A DNA stretch of 64,000 nt from Deltaproteobacteria bacterium (GCA_002869015.1 PKTT01000031.1:95-64094), one strand, 5' to 3'. Positions 5,793 through 55,197 are shown, counted from the first letter of the stretch. The notes: generated by a model from the sequence alone, not told the origin. A program made the numbers and translations.

Positions 5793-7585
5793 ATTTTCAA
5801 CCTGTCGTAGACCCGCTTGGCAAGTTGCCGCTCCTCAACCACGCGGGTTATATCGCCTGCGAAGTTAAATAGTGCCTTTTTGCCCCGCTCTCCCATGAAA
5901 GGCAGCGCCCTCAAGGCCTCCTTTCTTACCTGGGGCTTTTCATGGTCGAGCTGGCTTATGATAAAGGGGAGTGCTCGCTCATCACCCATCCTCCCAAGAA
6001 TGATCAACGCATTTCTAAGAAAATACCATATCGACCCGCGGGCGCGCTGCACAAGTACCGGTGCGTAGCGGGGTGAGAAGTGGCAAAGCATCTCCACGAC
6101 AAAGCGGCGTATCTTCATCCGCTCCTCTGTAAGCAGCAGCTTGAAAGCGGCCTCTATTACCTCATTTTGATGGTGCGCCGCAAAACGGACAAGGCGGCCG
6201 CGAACCTGAGCGGAGTAGTCGGAGACATCTGGCAGCGCTTTGTCAAAGAGCACCTTGAAGACATCATCGCGGTTTTCTAGGGCCTCCGGGCAAGAGGCTT
6301 CTATCGATTCAAGGAACCCCAGGACCCCTACCCCATCCAGCTCCTCCAGCCGCGCCACAATACGGTCGCCGAGGAGCGATTGGCCGTTTTCCGTTTCTAT
6401 CTGCGCGAGGGTGAAGTAGACGTTGTCTATGTGCGGCTCCAGGTCCTCATACATGCCGAAGGAGACCGATTTCTCCCCCTCAATCCTCATCCTGGACGCC
6501 ATCCTGTCAAGGGTGGATTTGTACCCCTCGCCCATGTAGAGGTTTTCGTCATAGTTGAATAAAAAGGACTCAATCCACTCCCACACCTCGCGGGGGTGCC
6601 CGCTGGCAGCAGCATCCAGCTTGTTGTGTGAGGCCATGGAGGCCATGGAGATCATAGCGTCAGGGGGCAGAAACGCTTTTGTGAAAGCGGCCATTCTGCC
6701 TGTCTTGTCTCCGCCTAGCGAGACCAGGTGCGCCATCAGATCCGCGACCTTCTCCCCCTCCACCTTTTCCATCAAGGCGGAGATTGTCTCGCCTGTGCCG
6801 GAGGCGTCTGAGACGAAGACATCAACGAGGCGTGCCAGGTCGGAAGCCTCCAGGGACTCACCGACCCTGGCTAGGTGCTCCAGCACCTCAGTACGGCGCT
6901 CATCGGGCACCAGGCGTATCGCCCTGTCAATCATTGAGCCCATGCGCTCCATGACCTGCGCGAGATTTCTAACCTGCTCCTCTTTATTGTCGCCCACCAG
7001 GACAGCGTTCCAAAACTCCTCGGAGGAGAGAACCCGCGCCATATCCTTCGGGCTCCCAGATTCACCCTGTAGCCAGAGCCAAATCTGCTGGCTGCGGCGA
7101 AAGGCGTCATCCTCTTCGGAGGAGACGCCATCTGTGGAGAGGTGCTGGTGGAGTTCGCCAAGGTCGAGCGGCTCAAGGGTTATGGTGGAGATATCCTCAG
7201 CCTCGAAGCTCTCTACAAGTGCATTTCCTACAAGCTCTCTGTCTGCTATGACATTGGCAAAGGAGTAGAGGTGGCTCTCTTTAAGTTGAGGCGAAAGGGT
7301 AAGGCGTGATAACTGCCGTGCATGGAGGAGGCGCGCGAGCACTTCTGCGCGGCTGTCTTTGCCGCCGAAGAATTCGCCGTAGATGATTAGCTCGTTTGAG
7401 GTTATGCCTATGGAGAGGGGTTCTTCTTCCTCAGAGACCCAATCCACGACCTGATCGGCCATGTTGGCCATCTGGGGGTGACCGGTAGGATAGATCGAGA
7501 CGGTCTTCACCAAAAGGAGCATATCTTTGGCGAAGCTCTCTACCCTTCCTCTTAGCGTTTCGGAGATCTCTATCTCCCCGGTCAT
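5789..7585 (-). CDS. Large uncharacterised protein with C-terminal HEAT-like repeats, co-operonic with the HD-GYP gene
   Basis: A 598-aa ORF that overlaps the HD-GYP gene by 4 nt. The C-terminus (LGRMGDERALPFIISQLDHEKPQVRKEALRALPFMG) is HEAT/PBS-lyase-like. The N-terminus shares a YP-x-GHP-type module with the HD-GYP protein. Confidence 0.6.
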   Translation of the reverse strand: MTGEIEISETLRGRVESFAKDMLLLVKTVSIYPTGHPQMANMADQVVDWVSEEEEPLSIGITSNELIIYGEFFGGKDSRAEVLARLLHARQLSRLTLSPQLKESHLYSFANVIADRELVGNALVESFEAEDISTITLEPLDLGELHQHLSTDGVSSEEDDAFRRSQQIWLWLQGESGSPKDMARVLSSEEFWNAVLVGDNKEEQVRNLAQVMERMGSMIDRAIRLVPDERRTEVLEHLARVGESLEASDLARLVDVFVSDASGTGETISALMEKVEGEKVADLMAHLVSLGGDKTGRMAAFTKAFLPPDAMISMASMASHNKLDAAASGHPREVWEWIESFLFNYDENLYMGEGYKSTLDRMASRMRIEGEKSVSFGMYEDLEPHIDNVYFTLAQIETENGQSLLGDRIVARLEELDGVGVLGFLESIEASCPEALENRDDVFKVLFDKALPDVSDYSAQVRGRLVRFAAHHQNEVIEAAFKLLLTEERMKIRRFVVEMLCHFSPRYAPVLVQRARGSIWYFLRNALIILGRMGDERALPFIISQLDHEKPQVRKEALRALPFMGERGKKALFNFAGDITRVVEERQLAKRVYDRLKI

Positions 7586-47170: not shown

Positions 47171-47677
47171 ATGTTTCTCAACGAGGAGGAAATATTTTTC
47201 GAGGTTCCCCTATCGCCTCAGTCGGAGGAGTATCTGGATACGCTTGTGCCCCTTAAGGCGGGGCTCTATCTGGACCCCGGCGTCGTAGAGGAGTGGTCCT
47301 GCGACCCGAAGCGTTGCCGCCCCGCGCTGGGCAGAAACCTCTGCTGCAAGGTTGAGCTTAGGTGCGCCCACCTTGACTCGGAGGGGCTCTGTAAAATCCA
47401 CAGGGACAAGCCTTTTTGCTGTGACCTCTTCCCCCTGGAGCTGCTTCACATCGGCAACGCCCGCTGCGTAGTCTCCGCGAAGGACCCCTTCCTCTACCAG
47501 ATGAATTGGAGCCGCTTCGACCGCGACATGCTGCGCTGCTTCGATGGTGAGGTAAGGGAGGGGCGGCCTATCTTCGAGGTGGCGCTGCCGCTCCTTGAAG
47601 AGGTGCTTACCGCTTCGGAGGTCGCGGTGCTAAAGCGTGGCTATCAAAAACTCCTGGCTTCAGAATCGGCCGCCTGA
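47171..47677 (+). CDS. YkgJ-family (UPF0153) Cys-cluster protein
   Basis: Shows the C-x-n-C...CC...C...CC-x2-FP pattern (CRPALGRNLCC...GLCKIHRDKPFCCDLFP). Confidence 0.75.
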   Translation: MFLNEEEIFFEVPLSPQSEEYLDTLVPLKAGLYLDPGVVEEWSCDPKRCRPALGRNLCCKVELRCAHLDSEGLCKIHRDKPFCCDLFPLELLHIGNARCVVSAKDPFLYQMNWSRFDRDMLRCFDGEVREGRPIFEVALPLLEEVLTASEVAVLKRGYQKLLASESAA

Positions 47678-48639: not shown

Positions 48640-49152
48640 TTACGCTTCCTTACCGCAGCTCTCTCGGCAAGCGGCGCTCCTTTTGACCATCCATAACCAG
48701 CTTATGCCGATCATGGCCGACGTAACCAGCGCGACCAGCGGCTTTGCGAAGGGCAGGAATTTTGCTCCAAAGAGGGATATCCAAACGGCGAGCATCGGTG
48801 AGCCGCAGCAGCCCACTAAAAAGCAACCCCCAAGGGCCAAAGCTCCCGCGAAGGTCATTGAGCCTGCGGCTATCTTACCCTCCACCCCACTTTCTCTGGC
48901 GCCCCGCCTCGCTTTAATGAAGCTGCTCAAAGCATATAGGGCAAAGGCCGAGGAGAGGGCGTAGGAGTAGCTTAGCCAGTAGCCGCCTGTTTCAAGGTAG
49001 AGCCTGAACCATTCGCCCTCATCGGGGGTTACCGCCGCCCAACGTGATTGCTCGGGAGCAACCTCGGGGAACCACTTGTACCAAAGGACGTTCAGCACAA
49101 ATACTGCCAAAAATCCCATGGTAGGCAAAAACGCGCCCTTTAGCCGATTCAA
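48640..49152 (-). CDS. Hypothetical polytopic membrane protein with an intramembrane CC motif
   Basis: Four predicted helices, GGCFLVGCCGSPML within a helix, and a C-terminal CRESC. Confidence 0.5.
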   Translation of the reverse strand: MNRLKGAFLPTMGFLAVFVLNVLWYKWFPEVAPEQSRWAAVTPDEGEWFRLYLETGGYWLSYSYALSSAFALYALSSFIKARRGARESGVEGKIAAGSMTFAGALALGGCFLVGCCGSPMLAVWISLFGAKFLPFAKPLVALVTSAMIGISWLWMVKRSAACRESCGKEA

Positions 49153-49564: not shown

Positions 49565-49652
49565 TCCGGTCCCCTTAAAAGCCCCCTTTGACAATCAACG
49601 TTGAATACACCAGAGAATAGACGATTTATCAAATTATTATATACGCTTTGAC

Positions 49653-49686
49653 AAAAAAATAGGGGCGCTGCATACGCAACGCCCCC
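49653..49686 (-). terminator. Rho-independent terminator after the MFS gene
   Basis: The minus strand reads GGGGCG...CGCCCC with an inner TGC/GCA extension, followed by TATTTTTTT. Confidence 0.8.
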
Positions 49687-49721: not shown

Positions 49722-51014
49722 CTAGGCGGCTTCGGCGATCCTCTCCTCTTCGCTGACATCCGTGGCGATGGTCTTCGCCTTCTTGTCGCGGAGGGTGAGG
49801 GTCATGCCGGCTCCGAGGAGGAGCAGCACGCCAGCGGTGATGAATGAAAGGTCGTATGAACCCGTTGAGGCCTGAAGCATCTGGCTTACGCGGCCCCAAA
49901 CGAGCCCGCCGACGCCCCACGCGGAGAAGAGTATGCCGTAATTGGTGCCGAAGTTTCTGAGCCCCCAGAAGTCCTTTGCGAAGGAGGGGAAGAGGGAGAG
50001 GTTGGTGCCGTAGCAAAAACCGATACCCGCGGCGAGGGCGACAAGCATGATGCCGCTCGGATTCTGGGCGCCAACTATCGGTATGGCTGTGAACATAAGG
50101 GTCGCCTGGAAGACCATCATCACGAGGAGGGTCTTGGCGCGGCCAATCTTATCCGAGAGGATTCCCGCGACTATACGTCCGCCGGCGTTGCCCACCGCCA
50201 TCAGCGCCACCGCTACGAACGCAGCCTCGCCGAGGGATTTCTTTGCCATTCCGGCAACCGAGCCGATGACCATCAGGCCCGCGCCGGAGCCTACGAAAAA
50301 GGCTGTCCAGAGGGTGTAGAAGCTTGATGTTTTAAAGAGCTCGGAGGGCTTGAAATCTATCTGTCCGGGGGTCGGCGAGTTGGAGCTTTTGGAGCCCGTG
50401 GTTATCGTCCCCTCGGGGATGAAACCCGCCGGGGGGTTACTGAGCAGCATCGAAAGGCCGCCGACAACAGCGGTGAAGGCGATGCCGAAAAAGAGCATCG
50501 ACTGCTGGATTCCGTAGGCGCCGAGCATGTACTTAGCCAGCGGAGCTATGTAGACGGAGGCCAGCCCGAAGCCGGAGACGACTATGCCCGCGATTAGGCC
50601 CGTTTTCGCCGGGGGAAACCATTTGAGGGCGGGCGGTGTTGCGGCGGAGTAGCCAAAGCCGATTCCCAGACCCGCGAGGACGCCAAAGCCGCCGACCCAG
50701 GCAAGGTAGCTGGTGGTCTGGGAGATTACGAGAAACCCCGCGCCTACGAGGAGGCCGCCTACGAGGGCGGTGAGGCGGGGTCCAAAGCGGTCCTGCACGC
50801 GCCCTGCGATTATCATAGCGAAGGCGAAGACCAGGCAGCAAACCGCGTAGGGGTCATTTATCGAGGAGAGGTCCCAGTTAAAGGAGCCTCCCGCTTCGAT
50901 GGACTCCTTGATTGAGCCCTTGAATATTGACCAGGTGTAAAGGATGCCGAGGGCGAGGTTTATTCCGGTGCCCGCCAGGACGACGCTCCAGCCTTTGTTG
51001 GTTTTGCTGCTCAT
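49722..51014 (-). CDS. MFS transporter, oxalate/formate antiporter (OFA)-like core
   Basis: MSSKTNKGWSVVLAGTGINLALGILYTWSIF... with 12 TM helices. A strong internal RBS (AAGGAG-N7-ATG) sits at 51014. The open frame continues upstream with no stop (see next feature). Confidence 0.85.
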   Translation of the reverse strand: MSSKTNKGWSVVLAGTGINLALGILYTWSIFKGSIKESIEAGGSFNWDLSSINDPYAVCCLVFAFAMIIAGRVQDRFGPRLTALVGGLLVGAGFLVISQTTSYLAWVGGFGVLAGLGIGFGYSAATPPALKWFPPAKTGLIAGIVVSGFGLASVYIAPLAKYMLGAYGIQQSMLFFGIAFTAVVGGLSMLLSNPPAGFIPEGTITTGSKSSNSPTPGQIDFKPSELFKTSSFYTLWTAFFVGSGAGLMVIGSVAGMAKKSLGEAAFVAVALMAVGNAGGRIVAGILSDKIGRAKTLLVMMVFQATLMFTAIPIVGAQNPSGIMLVALAAGIGFCYGTNLSLFPSFAKDFWGLRNFGTNYGILFSAWGVGGLVWGRVSQMLQASTGSYDLSFITAGVLLLLGAGMTLTLRDKKAKTIATDVSEEERIAEAA

Positions 51015-51575
51015 CGTTTCGCTCCTTGAATAAAAGTAAGTATTTGAATCGCTCGAATCGTTTTTTTGCTCCAGGGCAACTAGGGCTGCGCTCTCAGGCT
51101 CAACACCCTCGCCAAGGCCGTCAAAGAGATTCTCGACGGTCTCTTTTAGCCTTTTTGATTCCTCACAGATAACGTTGACGAACTTTGCGCGGGTTTCGGC
51201 GTCGCGGTCGGGGTTCTCCCTCAGTATCTCCGCGGAGGAGAGTATCGCCGCAAGCGGAGTTCTTAGCTCGTGCTGAAGAACTCCTCTAGCGACCTCGCAG
51301 GTCGAGGCCGACTCGATGGATGGACGGGGATTGAACCGCTCGACTCTACCCTCACGTGTGCCGCTTGCCATGCCGCTCCAACGCTCAGCGAGCATCTTGT
51401 AGCGTGAGCACCGCGAAAAGTTGCCGTCGCAGTAGCGCACCATGATATTCACATCGCTGGGGGATGGATTTGGACCTCCCACCTCACACCAATCCTCTCT
51501 GCCGAAAAAACGGCAGACGGCGTCGCTTGCTTCTCGCTCTTTAATTCTCTCGCCGTAGGTTGTGTGAGCTGGCAT
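51015..51575 (-). CDS. 4-Cys module plus a HisKA/DHp H-box module, in frame with the downstream MFS gene and not separated from it by a stop
   Basis: An AGGAGA Shine-Dalgarno precedes the ATG at 51575. The sequence reads CRFFGREDWC...VRYCDGNFSRCSRY, then LQHELRTPLAAILSSAEIL...EESKRLKETVENL (a classical H-box and second DHp helix). There is no HATPase_c domain. The track shows one continuous 617-aa ORF. Confidence 0.6.
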
Positions 51576-51610
51576 CCCTTATCTCCTGGAATCTATTTGG
51601 AGGATTTTTA

Positions 51611-51627
51611 CTTCAAGGGTCGTGCCA
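51611..51627 (-). promoter_or_regulatory. Candidate sigma54 (-24/-12) promoter
   Basis: The minus strand reads TGGCACG-ACCC-TTGAA against the consensus TGGCACG-N4-TTGCW (one mismatch, at the -12 C). It lies about 35 nt upstream of the ATG at 51575, next to a sigma54 activator gene. Confidence 0.5.
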
Positions 51628-51841: not shown

Positions 51842-51857
51842 TTCGCAATAATGCGAA
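51842..51857. promoter_or_regulatory. Inverted repeat TTCGCA-ATAA-TGCGAA (candidate UAS site 2)
   Basis: Read directly. It has perfect half-sites and lies just downstream of the response-regulator stop. Confidence 0.45.
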
Positions 51858-51862
51858 AAATA

Positions 51863-53218
51863 TCAACGTTTGAGACCGTGCTTCTTCATCTTTCGATAGA
51901 ATGTAGCCAGATTAACATCGGCGCGCTTTGCGGCATCCTCCACCGAGCCTCCGGCCTCGGAGAGGAGCCTCGAAAAGTACTCACGCTCAAACCCCGCCAG
52001 GGCTGTGGCGTAATCTTTAAGCGATGAGCCGGCGCCACCCTCCTTCGGCAAAGGCATTACCTGCGCGAGCGACTCAATAGTGAGATATTCTCCCTGTTCA
52101 AGGGCCATGGAGCCCTCTATGACATTCTTAAGTTGCCTGACGTTACCGGGCCATGGATAGGAGAGGAGCGCCTCCTTGGCCTTAGCCGTGAAGCCTTTGA
52201 GCAGCGTTCCGAAGCGTAGGTTGTCCTCGCGCATGAAATGCGCGGCAAGTAGCATTATGTCCTCAACCCGCTCCCTAAGTGGGGGCATAAGGAGCGTTAC
52301 GACTGCAAGCCTGTAATAGAGGTCCTCTCTAAAGCTCCCCTTCTTGACGGCCTCCTCAAGGTCGACGTTTGTCGCCGCGACAACGCGCACGTCCACTTTG
52401 GTTGGGGTGTCATCCCCTACCTTGTAAAACTCCCGCTCCTGAAGGAACCTCAAGAGCACCCGCTGGACGTTCTCTGGAAGGTTCCCCACCTCGTCGAGAA
52501 AGAGGGTGCCTCCCTCCGCCGTTAGGATGAGCCCGGCCCGCTCCTCATCCGCGCCCGTGAAGGCGCCCTTTCTCGATCCGAAAAGCTCTGCTTCAAGGAG
52601 CGATGAGGGCAGAGCCCCGCAGTTTATAGCGACGAAGGGGCCATCCCTCCTCGCGGAGCGCTTGTGAATTGCGCGGGCGACCAGCTCTTTCCCGGTGCCC
52701 GATTCGCCATTTATAAGAACGGGGATATCGCGCTCGGCAACCCGCTCCGCCCGCTCAAGCACCTTCAGAAGGCCGGGGGCTTCACCGATAATCTCGCTTC
52801 TACCCTCAAGCTTCTCCCTCAGCTCACGGTTCTCGGCGATGAGTGAATTTCTCGCCAGGGCATTCCTGATGCGGTGGAGAAGCTCCTCAGGCTCAAAGGG
52901 CTTGGTCAGCATATCGTATGCGCCCTTACGGAGGGCGTCTATCGAGGTCTCAAGTGTCGCGTAGGCTGTGGCGACTATAACAGGCGGCGCGGGCTCCTGC
53001 CCCCTCACCCTGGCGAGCACCTCAAGGCCGCTCATCACAGGCATCCTCACATCGGTTATAACGAGGTCGTAGTCACCCGGCTTGTAGGCGGACAGCGCTT
53101 CATCGGCGCGGATGTTTACCGTGACGTCGTACCCCTCATCCGAGAGGACAGCGTCGACCATCCGGCACATCCCCTCCTCGTCATCGATAAAAAGTATCCT
53201 CGGCCGCGCCTCCATCAA
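51863..53218 (-). CDS. Sigma54-dependent response regulator (NtrC family: REC + AAA+ + Fis-type HTH)
   Basis: REC (ILFIDDEE...LVITDVRMP), Walker A GESGTGKE, the GAFTGA loop and a C-terminal HTH. Confidence 0.92.
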   Translation of the reverse strand: MMEARPRILFIDDEEGMCRMVDAVLSDEGYDVTVNIRADEALSAYKPGDYDLVITDVRMPVMSGLEVLARVRGQEPAPPVIVATAYATLETSIDALRKGAYDMLTKPFEPEELLHRIRNALARNSLIAENRELREKLEGRSEIIGEAPGLLKVLERAERVAERDIPVLINGESGTGKELVARAIHKRSARRDGPFVAINCGALPSSLLEAELFGSRKGAFTGADEERAGLILTAEGGTLFLDEVGNLPENVQRVLLRFLQEREFYKVGDDTPTKVDVRVVAATNVDLEEAVKKGSFREDLYYRLAVVTLLMPPLRERVEDIMLLAAHFMREDNLRFGTLLKGFTAKAKEALLSYPWPGNVRQLKNVIEGSMALEQGEYLTIESLAQVMPLPKEGGAGSSLKDYATALAGFEREYFSRLLSEAGGSVEDAAKRADVNLATFYRKMKKHGLKR

Positions 53219-53631
53219 AACTCCTCGTGGTTCACAGGCAGGGTAACGGTGACGACGGTCCCCTTGCCCGGCTCTGATTCGACGCGTATCTCGCCGCTGT
53301 GACGCTCTATTATCTGCTTTGTTATTGAAAGCCCAAGTCCCGTGCCGCGCTGGCGCGTAGTGAAGAAGGGCTCGAAAATCTGTCTCGCCACCTCTGCATC
53401 CATACCGACGCCGTTGTCCTCGAAGATTATCTCGACATTATCCTCCCCTGACATCCGCGCTGAGACGGTGAGAATCCCCCCTCCCTCCATGGCGGCCCCT
53501 GCGTTGAGGATTATATTTATCGCCATCTGCTTAATAAGGTCTGAATCCAGCGCCACCAGAGGTAGCCCACGTTCAATGTTACGCACAACGCGAACCCCCT
53601 CCATATCCGTATGGGCGCTAGCGAAATCCAC
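53215..53631 (-). CDS. HATPase_c (CA) domain fragment of the upstream histidine kinase, cut off by an in-frame TAG
   Basis: N-box (NIILNAGAAM), G1 (DNGVGM), F-box (FEPFFTT) and G2 (GTGLGLS). It begins 9 nt after the TAG at 53640..53638 in the same frame, and its only start option is a GTG without an obvious Shine-Dalgarno. Confidence 0.6.
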   Translation of the reverse strand: MDFASAHTDMEGVRVVRNIERGLPLVALDSDLIKQMAINIILNAGAAMEGGGILTVSARMSGEDNVEIIFEDNGVGMDAEVARQIFEPFFTTRQRGTGLGLSITKQIIERHSGEIRVESEPGKGTVVTVTLPVNHEEF

Positions 53632-53637
53632 TATCTG

Positions 53638-55197
53638 CTACAGCAGCCCTGAGGTATCGACCTTCTCGTAGGCTGGGCGGGGCGCGCGCGCGTAGCTGAG
53701 GAGGTCCTGCACGATCTTTTTAGAGCGCTTGGTCTCCCGTTTTATCTCCTGAACATAGCGCAGGTTGACATCATCGGGCGGGAGCTTTCGCTCCAGGTAA
53801 CCCGCGTAGCCGAGGATTACTCCGAGGGGGTTGTTAATCTCATGGGCCACACCTGCGGAAAGGACGCCCAGGGAGGCCATCTTGCCCTGCTGCGCCAGCT
53901 TGGACTCCATCTCCCGGTTCTGGCGTATAGCCTCGGTCATGTCGTTATAGGCGCTGGCCAGCTCCGCCAGCTCATCGCCCCCTCCAGCCTCCATCCTGTC
54001 GGTTAGGCTTCCGCCGCGCACCCTTCGAATTACTTCGGTCATTCGGGTAATTGGCCGCGTATATACCTTTGAGAGCAGATATATCAGCGCCAGCGCCACG
54101 AGGAGGACTCCCGCAACCACAAGGCCCATGAAGCCTAGCACCTTCTCCTTTATCAGGTTGGCATCATGGAAAAACTCATTTTCATAGGAGCCCACCGCTA
54201 CCACCCACCCCAATGGCTCAAAAAACTCGTAGCGCACGATCTTCATACGGGGCACCTCGTCGCCTGCGTTCATCCAGGGATACCTTATCCACCCCGAGCG
54301 ATTTTTTAGCATCTCGCGTATGAAGTATCTTCCGTCGCGGTCCTTTTCGTCGAGGAGGTTCTCGCCCTCACGGAATGGATGAATAACGGCGTTTCCACCC
54401 GCGTCAAGGGCGTAGATGTAGCCTGTCTCCCCCACCCGCTTCGCCTCAATGCGTGCCTTGAGCTCCGCGTATGAGCGCTCCTCAAAGGCGGTGTCCTCAT
54501 ATGTTTCGTCCAGATAGCTTGAGCTCGCTATTATCCAACGCCAGGGCTTGAAGTAGCGGTAAGCAACCGCTTTTCTGCGGGGGAACTCATCCCCCAGCGC
54601 CTCGTTGCGCCAGGGGTATTCTGTGTAGAGCACCTCCCCCGTAGCGGCAGCGGGAGCATTATGAGTCATCTCACGTATGAAGTAATGTCCATCCTCATCT
54701 TTGGAATCGATGATGTTCCGCCCCTCCTGCGCTATGTGAACAAGGAGGTCGCCTTCTGGGTTCATTACATAGAAATAGCCTGTTTGACCTACGGCAAAAG
54801 CTCTTAACGCGGCGGCGGTCTCCTTCTTGGCGGTCTCAAGGGAGATGCGCCCCTCGGCAAACTCCTGATCTTTCTCTTCGGCGAGGCGGTAGGCGAGATT
54901 CACCAGGGTGGAAAGGTCGCGGCGCACCGTCTCCTTTTTGTCCTCGCGATAAACATCGAACTGTTGGTAGTGGGAGTTCAGAAGGTCAAGGGTAAAGGCG
55001 GCCATGTGCTCCAGGTCTGCGCGGCTCGCTGCGGTGACCCCTTGAAAGGCGAGGCGTGAGGAGACAGTCCCGACAATACCACCGGTAATGAGCACCGCCC
55101 CCAGAAGGAGGGGCAAGAGCATTAACAGTAGCTGGTTTCTCAGCTTAAATTTGCGCAAAAAATTCATATCAAAGGGTCTCGCCAGGGCTCTGCCCAC
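53638..55197 (-). CDS. Sensor histidine kinase N-terminal part (TM, tandem Cache-like repeats, TM, HAMP, DHp with H-box), ending at an in-frame TAG
   Basis: Two similar periplasmic repeats (GYFYVMNPEGDLLVH...DEDGHYFIREM and GYIYALDAGGNAVIH...DRDGRYFIREM), a HAMP region and the H-box AHEINNPL. The likely true start is the ATG at 55167 (MNFLRKFKL). Confidence 0.75.
   Translation of the reverse strand: MGRALARPFDMNFLRKFKLRNQLLLMLLPLLLGAVLITGGIVGTVSSRLAFQGVTAASRADLEHMAAFTLDLLNSHYQQFDVYREDKKETVRRDLSTLVNLAYRLAEEKDQEFAEGRISLETAKKETAAALRAFAVGQTGYFYVMNPEGDLLVHIAQEGRNIIDSKDEDGHYFIREMTHNAPAAATGEVLYTEYPWRNEALGDEFPRRKAVAYRYFKPWRWIIASSSYLDETYEDTAFEERSYAELKARIEAKRVGETGYIYALDAGGNAVIHPFREGENLLDEKDRDGRYFIREMLKNRSGWIRYPWMNAGDEVPRMKIVRYEFFEPLGWVVAVGSYENEFFHDANLIKEKVLGFMGLVVAGVLLVALALIYLLSKVYTRPITRMTEVIRRVRGGSLTDRMEAGGGDELAELASAYNDMTEAIRQNREMESKLAQQGKMASLGVLSAGVAHEINNPLGVILGYAGYLERKLPPDDVNLRYVQEIKRETKRSKKIVQDLLSYARAPRPAYEKVDTSGLL

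Follow-up and report, generated by a model that had tools for sequence, protein, structure and literature searches.

What could a histidine kinase dimerisation domain contribute when it stands without a catalytic domain and is joined to a solute transporter? This question is raised by a gene in a 64,000-nucleotide stretch of DNA from a Deltaproteobacteria bacterium (GCA_002869015.1 PKTT01000031.1:95-64094), which as a whole is referred to here as the window. On the minus strand, positions 49722..51575, a single open reading frame (ORF) of 617 amino acids (aa) runs without interruption from a domain with four cysteines (4-Cys domain) through a dimerisation and histidine phosphotransfer (DHp) hairpin into a transporter of the major facilitator superfamily (MFS). 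In the original prediction, made from the sequence alone, this ORF was described as a possible phosphorelay element embedded in a transporter. We confirmed that the fusion is a real and conserved gene and not an artefact, and we found that its N-terminal module, the 4-Cys domain plus the DHp, is tightly linked to a sensor kinase and an NtrC-type response regulator. The interpretation offered in the original prediction stood up only in part.

The fused gene and its domains

The gene and its parts have the following positions.

49722..51575, minus strand: whole ORF of 617 aa (4-Cys domain, DHp, linker, MFS transporter), with the stop codon TAG at 49722-49724
51582..51587, minus strand: Shine-Dalgarno (SD) sequence AGGAGA, long form, 6 nt before the ATG at 51575, from reading of the sequence
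51378..51527, minus strand: 4-Cys domain, aa 17-66 (C21, C30, C49, C56), of an uncharacterised family and probably metal-binding
51114..51317, minus strand: HisKA-type DHp hairpin, aa 87-154, without catalytic ATPase domain, with His102 (codon 51270-51272) and Thr106
51015..51113, minus strand: linker from the DHp to the transporter, aa 155-187, poorly conserved and variable in length
49725..51014, minus strand: SfMCT-type monocarboxylate (probably L-lactate) MFS transporter, aa 188-617
49651..49686, minus strand: intrinsic terminator-like hairpin 3' of the ORF, with an 11-bp stem and a T run, from reading of the sequence

Using the full-length protein as query, we found homologs of 574-643 aa that are annotated with both HisKA and MFS_1 and share 56-92% identity with the window protein over 94-100% of the query (P0001-P0010 and P0016). 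One more protein of the same build, P0012 (625 aa), has a degenerate H-box and no HisKA annotation. The order of 4-Cys domain, H-box and MFS transporter is present in at least 12 further database proteins. Moreover, continuous fused ORFs with 53-92% identity were found in loci from unrelated metagenomes, metagenome-assembled genomes and independent assemblies, and the loci L011, L004, L012, L001 and L003 have the same continuous frame. Both the uninterrupted 617-aa ORF and the ribosome-binding site AGGAGA-N6-ATG at 51575 had been read correctly in the original prediction.

The closest ortholog, in L011, is 92% identical, and in this comparison the number of nonsynonymous substitutions per site (dN) is 0.052 for the 4-Cys domain, 0.035 for the DHp and 0.019 for the MFS part. 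The two linkers reach 0.18-0.35, and the one in front of the transporter has a value of 0.18, about nine times that of the MFS part. Synonymous sites are close to saturation or past it in the comparison with L011, with a synonymous rate (dS) of about 1.3 for the 4-Cys domain. The low dN of the domains versus the high dN of the linkers indicates that both N-terminal domains are translated and constrained, whereas the connecting segments drift. As judged from these substitution patterns, purifying selection acts on the 4-Cys and DHp segments.

In the 617-aa protein, Pfam recognises HisKA at residues 100-152 and MFS_1 at residues 229-559, in addition to a weak match to NFD4_C. The HisKA match (PF00512) has an E-value of 3.5e-11 and scores 43.4 bits in the full protein and 45.8 bits in the module alone, at a gathering score of 26.9. 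No HATPase_c domain was found in the protein at E-values up to 1, and the records of the fused and split homologs list none either; the protein is therefore not a complete sensor kinase. This agrees with the earlier claim of a DHp with an H-box and no ATPase domain. In the AlphaFold2 model, the helices of residues 87-120 and 126-154 form a hairpin with a block-mean predicted local distance difference test score (pLDDT) of 86-94 over residues 101-150, and residues 157-195, after the second helix, are modelled as disordered (pLDDT below 50). The module profile also matches the DHp of HK853 (PDB 3dge, E 1e-8).

The window H-box reads QHELRTPL, with His102 as the acceptor. In a comparison of 96 modules, the Arg at H+3 and the Pro at H+5 are present in all 96, and the His and the Thr at H+4 in 94 each. 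The Glu at H+1 is present in 66 of the 96, so that the acidic residue specific to kinases is absent in about 31% of the modules. It has been shown for HisKA domains that the acid at H+1 is required only for kinase activity and the Thr or Asn at H+4 only for phosphatase activity (PMC3510030). Hence, the H-box pattern favours phosphatase or phosphotransfer chemistry, not an autokinase, and it fits a DHp that no longer autophosphorylates and retains His/Thr-dependent chemistry on a receiver domain. A DHp of this kind would be consistent with the absent ATPase domain.

The N-terminal 4-Cys motif, also claimed earlier, proved to be the hallmark of a domain of its own, since C21, C30, C49 and C56 are the sole invariant columns in an alignment of 94 homologous domains. 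The domain has no Pfam family, no sequence match in the PDB and no fold match in the PDB by Foldseek, and our literature searches returned no description of it. With an alignment of 13 sequences, AlphaFold2 modelled the 4-Cys part at a block-mean pLDDT of 35-57, and with the alignment of 94 sequences at a mean pLDDT of 77. A profile search of 1.84 billion representative proteins gave only 83 matches. They comprise stand-alone proteins of 60-100 aa, stand-alone 4-Cys plus DHp proteins of 164-183 aa and fusions to Gpr1/Fun34/YaaH acetate-channel proteins. N-terminal 4-Cys domains are present in 40 of the 120 best MFS homologs, and the 4-Cys MFS proteins fall into three classes: class A carries a DHp as in the window, class B a linker with the motif PF(K/R)VxWPLP and class C a short linker.

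Several further carriers of the domain were seen. The linker motif, in full PF(K/R)V(K/R)WPLPF..RY, takes the place of the DHp in P0017, P0022, P0029, P0031, P0055 (Desulfuromonas versatilis DESUT3_31150) and P0148, and accompanies both MFS and YaaH carriers. Fusions of the 4-Cys domain to Gpr1/Fun34/YaaH (SatP-type) acetate-channel proteins are P0136, P0148, P0154, P0162, P0175, P0184 and an ORF at positions 6001-6888 of L093. A stand-alone 4-Cys protein of 72 aa lies on a contig of 454 bp, where the context is uninformative.

For the transporter part, residues 196-584 match the NCBIfam equivalog model of the SfMCT L-lactate MFS transporter (NF049980) with 401.9 bits, versus a cut-off of 320, and the best PDB match is SfMCT itself (6g9x, E 2.5e-46). 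Two oxalate/formate antiporter models remained under their cut-offs (TIGR00890 with 207 versus 374.85; TIGR04259 with 152.7 versus 335). The original prediction had named an MFS transporter of the oxalate/formate antiporter type; the superfamily stands, but the subfamily holds only loosely. Substrate binding in SfMCT involves L28, Y119, L145, N276, R280, Y331, F335, F359 and C362 (PMC6573034). When these residues are mapped on the window protein, L28, Y119, N276, R280, Y331 and F359 are kept, and three are changed (L145F, F335L and C362W). Read from this mapping, the carboxylate-binding core is intact and the specificity-lining residues are different. The transporter is probably a monocarboxylate carrier with lactate as substrate. 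Among the proton-site residues of SfMCT, Y383 alone is kept; H250, R256, D257, K377 and D378 read S, K, K, Q and A. Since five of the six are changed, the coupling of the transporter may differ from that of SfMCT.

Split relatives and a second start codon

The original prediction had taken a separate small gene with its own stop codon in orthologous loci as a sign against the fusion. Such genes do exist in some lineages, and they show a two-gene unit that is sometimes fused rather than an artefact. We found 13 split loci (L008, L009, L010 and ten Competibacteraceae genomes, including Candidatus Competibacter denitrificans), where a 4-Cys plus DHp gene with its own stop codon is followed by an MFS gene with its own SD-ATG. 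The gap is mostly 11-25 nt; outliers are L051, with 77 nt, and L091, with the stop codon directly adjoining the ATG. The separate module gene has about 175 aa and is found mostly in Competibacteraceae, where the stop codon of the split loci abuts the SD (ccaTAAggagg...ATG). Split modules end 20-40 residues beyond the DHp. In three loci, module and MFS share one frame with one stop between them (L009, at about 2020-2050; L013 and L014, at about 6530-6620). One substitution or stop-codon readthrough would give a fused protein in these three.

Stand-alone modules occur in at least 69 database clusters, a number from which fused to split ratios are not derivable, since the word-index protein search behind it misses an N-terminal module embedded in a long fusion; the 187-aa query returned nothing of this kind and the full-length query found the fusions. 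In the fused proteins P0007-P0010, the DHp is nearer to the split modules (43-55% identity) than to the window group (38-44%). There has probably been more than one event of fusion or fission. On the evidence of these gene arrangements, the fused gene is the covalent version of a conserved two-gene unit, in which the module is an autonomous and sometimes fused partner of the transporter.

The fused gene itself carries a second translation start in front of the transporter.

51022..51027, minus strand: internal SD AAGGAG, 7 nt before the internal ATG, conserved in fused loci
51012..51014, minus strand: internal ATG (Met188), from which the bare transporter is predicted to start, equal to the start codon of the MFS gene in split loci

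The strong internal ribosome-binding site AAGGAG-N7-ATG at 51014, noticed in the original prediction, was found again and is conserved. An ATG stands about 10 residues ahead of the first transmembrane segment in all 32 of the 32 fused loci. An SD match of at least 5 nt, located 4-17 nt upstream, precedes it in 26 of the 28 loci scored, versus 22 of 550 (4%) other in-frame ATGs of the same genes. The internal SD also leaves a trace at the protein level, with K-E-E, G-G or R-E-E just before the Met, within a linker that is otherwise unconserved. Because ATG and SD are conserved to this degree, the bare transporter is probably also made, and probably from the same mRNA as the long form. We considered that the bare transporter might have a promoter of its own and rejected this, as no sigma70-like promoter was seen before the internal ATG.

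Promoter and neighbouring two-component system

Upstream of the gene lie a promoter, three palindromes and two signalling genes.

51612..51627, minus strand: sigma54-type promoter TGGCACG-N4-TTGAA (TGGCACGACCCTTGAA), 52 nt before the first ATG, with the GG of the -24 element present and GA at -12; identical in L011
51716..51731, minus strand: enhancer-like palindrome 3, TTTGCA-TTAA-TGCGAA, conserved in L011
51810..51825, minus strand: degenerate palindrome 2, CTTGCC-GATT-TGCGAA, about 310 nt before the first Cys codon, where a site is found elsewhere too (L004 at -307, L006 at -329)
51842..51857, minus strand: enhancer-like palindrome 1, TTCGCA-TTAT-TGCGAA, a putative binding site for the NtrC-type regulator, with an equivalent position in L011 and most module loci
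51863..53218, minus strand: NtrC-type response regulator (REC, sigma54 AAA+, HTH_8; from Pfam), presumed activator of the promoter, with orthologs adjacent in related loci
53215..55197, minus strand: dCache-HAMP-HisKA-HATPase sensor kinase with one in-frame TAG at 53638-53640, which is GAG in L011; the gene is intact in related loci

The sigma54-type promoter of the original prediction is conserved together with the enhancer-like palindromes. In nearly all module-bearing loci, an element TGGYAY-N6-TTGCW and one to three palindromes TTYGCA-N4-TGCRAA are present at similar distances; the promoter element lies 60-165 nt upstream of the first Cys codon, which places it about 45-115 nt upstream of the start codon. 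The -12 element of the window promoter reads GA versus the consensus GC, a variant shared with L011 and L012, and most relatives have TTGC. In L011, promoter and palindromes are kept and the spacers have diverged.

The same promoter and TTYGCA-N4-TGCRAA palindromes also occur at loci with no kinase/regulator pair next to them, namely L005 (Desulfuromonas versatilis), L016, L025, L027, L069 (Geobacter hydrogenophilus) and L086 (Citrifermentans bremense). Such loci suggest a regulon that is served by a regulator encoded elsewhere.

The regulator has the Pfam domains REC, Sigma54_activat and HTH_8. A kinase/regulator pair lies directly upstream on the same strand in 13 of the 14 loci with a DHp module, fused or split, compared with 10 of 14 class B loci (downstream, on the opposite strand), 4 of 13 class C loci (upstream, on the same strand) and 5 of 46 plain-MFS loci (three upstream on the same strand, two on the opposite strand); the compared loci are phylogenetically related, so that these counts are not independent events. 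The link to the neighbouring pair that had been proposed at the outset is thus a tight one. A pair of this kind was also seen in L093, where a 4-Cys-YaaH fusion follows directly behind a dCache kinase and an NtrC-type regulator.

The original prediction had also described the neighbouring kinase as split into a sensor-DHp ORF and an ORF with the catalytic ATPase (CA) domain only. This did not hold. The ORFs 53638..55197 and 53215..53631 share one reading frame, with a single TAG between them, and the codon is GAG in the L011 ortholog (LLEQIVDF versus LL*QIVDF in the window), which corresponds to one G-to-T change. Every annotated related locus that holds the gene whole has an intact kinase of 635-658 aa, and in 29 further loci tblastn matches span both halves with the H-box region conserved. 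Across all locus classes, the kinase H-box region, AHEINNPLGVILGYA, hardly varies. Recoding of the TAG, for example to pyrrolysine, was considered and rejected, given the GAG of the ortholog and the fact that no other gene of the window is interrupted in frame; other pairs of ORFs in the same frame are adjacent genes or non-coding frames. For this TAG, which is specific to the window, there are two explanations: a base-call error, or a nonsense mutation that leaves this organism with an inactive or truncated kinase.

Two small ORFs lie on the other side of the fusion gene. A cysteine-rich ORF of 168 aa (47171..47677, plus strand) has CxxC-type and CC motifs, and a membrane ORF of 170 aa (48640..49152, minus strand) has the motif GCCGSP. 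In the syntenic locus L004, a gene of 167 aa is found in the corresponding position.

Possible roles of the module

The reading that we favour, with chances that we put slightly below even, is that the module-transporter gene is under control of the neighbouring two-component system and that the DHp exerts transporter-linked negative feedback on the regulator. The N-termini of MFS transporters are cytoplasmic, and the unit would consist of a cytoplasmic module, made up of the 4-Cys metal-binding domain and a HisKA DHp dimer without catalytic domain, and the SfMCT-type lactate or monocarboxylate transporter. The dCache kinase and the NtrC-type regulator, which are adjacent to the gene, would drive its expression via the three upstream palindromes and the sigma54-type promoter. 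On the one mRNA, ribosomes would start at two sites, as the conservation of the internal SD-ATG suggests, and produce the long module-transporter protein and the bare transporter. Without an ATPase domain and with the kinase-specific acidic residue relaxed, the DHp would be unable to autophosphorylate, while it retains the phospho-acceptor His and the phosphatase-critical Thr almost invariably. Its most likely role would then be to dock to a receiver domain and to dephosphorylate it or take back the phosphoryl group, and the neighbouring regulator is the most plausible source of this domain. We favour the regulator as docking partner because the module is almost obligately adjacent to the kinase/regulator pair, and communication between the DHp and the NtrC-type regulator is a plausible inference. 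The isolated DHp domain of EnvZ has phosphatase activity towards OmpR-P. The outcome would be negative feedback of the transporter on its own expression, tuned by the redox or metal state of the 4-Cys centre and possibly by the transport cycle.

Besides the relatedness of the compared loci, several points weigh against this reading. The His is missing in 2 of the 96 modules, being Glu in the fused P0012 and Arg in one split module. At the split locus L009, no two-component system is present within the available 1.5 kb of upstream sequence. Classes B and C, which have the 4-Cys domain without the DHp, sit under the same kinase/regulator pair, which makes the DHp dispensable for the core circuit. 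Moreover, the kinase keeps its own HExxN phosphatase motif in all locus classes, so that there is no missing activity to supply; we sought a kinase defect for which the module might compensate and found none, H-box and phosphatase motif being invariant across the classes. The module DHp, QHELRTPLAAILSSA (HELRTPL; best named matches CreC, PnpS, PhoR and VanS), differs in sequence type from the DHp of the cognate kinase (HEINNPL), and a docking specificity for the regulator that both would share is not evident from the sequences. A comparison of helix 1 of the regulator receiver domain between locus classes gave no interpretable class-specific pattern.

A more far-reaching version, which we consider rather doubtful, starts from the 4-Cys domain. 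It would be a new metal or Fe-S redox-sensing head that governs the uptake of monocarboxylates by two unrelated carriers, the SfMCT-type MFS transporters and the YaaH/SatP channels, with a DHp-bearing subclass that exchanges phosphate with the sigma54 regulator and makes the transporter a phospho-signalling node. An output or feedback of this type is not known from other two-component systems.

It is also conceivable, though in our judgement unlikely, that the DHp is only a four-helix-bundle dimerisation element or spacer, which pairs 4-Cys domains or transporters without any phosphoryl chemistry, and that regulation runs via the 4-Cys centre. The 4-Cys domain is indeed the common denominator, as it is found on MFS transporters without a DHp, with the WPLP motif or a short linker instead, and on YaaH channels; P0012 has lost the His, and the DHp type of the module is unlike that of the cognate kinase. 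On the other hand, the near-complete conservation of His, Thr, Arg and Pro in the 96 modules extends across lineages that share only 30-45% identity in the DHp, and such conservation is hard to explain structurally, as the adjacent kinase-specific Glu varies.

Still less probable, in our view, is a transporter gated by phosphorylation, in which the His would receive its phosphoryl group from the phosphorylated regulator by back-transfer or from another kinase, and the module would gate transport post-translationally and not feed back on transcription. The conserved His, the fusion or translational coupling of the module to the transporter and the presence of the same 4-Cys head on two unrelated monocarboxylate carriers, which suggests a direct action on transport, would all agree with it. 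However, the linker to the first transmembrane segment is long, variable and poorly conserved, which argues against a tight mechanical coupling, the split versions have no tether, and no precedent was found in our literature searches.

Very improbable is the modular relay of the original prediction, where a free CA-only protein would phosphorylate the transporter-borne DHp in trans and the phosphate would pass on to the NtrC-type regulator. In the window, the HATPase_c part does form a separate ORF (53215..53631, a CA fragment of 138 aa), and the module retains its His. Both kinase ORFs are in frame, though, with the one TAG that reads GAG in the 92% ortholog, and about 31% of the modules have lost the kinase-specific acid. 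Because the relatives with a whole gene have an intact kinase and no free CA domain, the idea is left without a basis.

We give next to no chance to a missed stop, frameshift or assembly error that joined a small upstream gene to the MFS gene: split orthologs exist, some with one same-frame stop between the parts, and the window has at least one other suspicious codon, the kinase TAG, but the frame is equally continuous in five other loci and 12 database proteins from unrelated samples, and the DHp-less classes add 26 further fused loci.

Our literature searches turned up no report of a HisKA-MFS fusion or of an MFS transporter that has a DHp-only module attached or adjacent to it. Transporters are known to report their presence or activity to the two-component system that controls their own expression, as in DctA-DcuS, BceAB-BceS, UhpC-UhpB and PstSCAB-PhoU-PhoR. 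In pairs of the DctA-DcuS type, the transporter touches a complete kinase non-covalently and carries no DHp itself, whereas the window transporter bears one. Spo0B and ChpT are DHp-type phosphotransferases, which form a dimeric four-helix bundle, pass phosphate to and from receiver domains by way of a conserved His and show no ATP-dependent autophosphorylation; they are soluble and have kept a degenerate CA-like domain. Unlike in these proteins, the window DHp is preceded by the 4-Cys domain and followed only by a disordered linker and the transporter, or by nothing in the split form, and has no CA-like domain. NreB and AirS are complete kinases with an N-terminal four-cysteine sensory element of the Fe-S type directly upstream of the DHp, and no similarity of sequence or fold between this element and the 4-Cys domain was detected by Pfam, PDB profile or Foldseek searches.

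The nearest described architecture is that of CbrA and CrbS/MxtR from Pseudomonas and Vibrio, which are complete sensor kinases with an N-terminal transporter domain of the solute:sodium symporter (SSS) family, followed by STAC, PAS, DHp and CA domains (PMC7918813). Like the window gene, they combine a solute transporter and a DHp in one polypeptide, with a link to carbon sources or monocarboxylates (acetate) and a partner of the NtrC family. For CbrA, this partner is the NtrC-family regulator CbrB. Unlike in CbrA and CrbS, the order is reversed in the window, with the module at the N-terminus, the transporter is of the MFS and not of the SSS type, and a separate complete kinase is encoded next door. 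STAC, PAS and CA domains, which are present in CbrA and CrbS, were not found in the Pfam scan of the 617-aa protein.

Control of a lactate permease by a sigma54-dependent two-component system has been described for LurSR of Desulfovibrio vulgaris, where the regulator occupies three binding sites in front of a predicted sigma54-dependent promoter and activates the lactate permease and lactate-oxidation genes (PMC6456213). The likeness to the window lies in this arrangement; a permease with a 4-Cys or DHp module is not described in the LurSR paper (PMC6456213). Archaeal REC-(PAS/GAF)n-HisKA proteins without HATPase have been proposed to function in dimerisation and protein-protein interaction, with no experimental study (PMC5847659). 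They resemble the window protein in having HisKA without a catalytic domain, but have other partner domains and neither a transporter nor a 4-Cys domain.

Overall, the finding combines a known theme, transporter-coupled two-component signalling, with an unannotated domain family, and the gene seems to represent a route, so far undescribed, by which a transporter exerts feedback on its own regulation. To our knowledge, transporters are known to inform two-component systems in only two ways, either as non-covalent partners of complete kinases or, as in CbrA/CrbS, as a domain of such a kinase itself. A kinase-less DHp with the His and the phosphatase Thr retained, fused or translationally coupled to a lactate-type transporter, would be a compact third solution for feedback based on need or flux. 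If this is true, the widespread architecture of HisKA without ATPase would obtain its first testable function. The 4-Cys domain, a family without annotation, is a marker of monocarboxylate carriers with two different folds. Candidatus Competibacter and Contendobacter, in which the unit is common, are glycogen-accumulating organisms of wastewater plants, where they compete for organic acids; the unit is also found in Desulfuromonadales-type anaerobes. The finding may therefore bear on the regulation of organic-acid uptake in all of these organisms.

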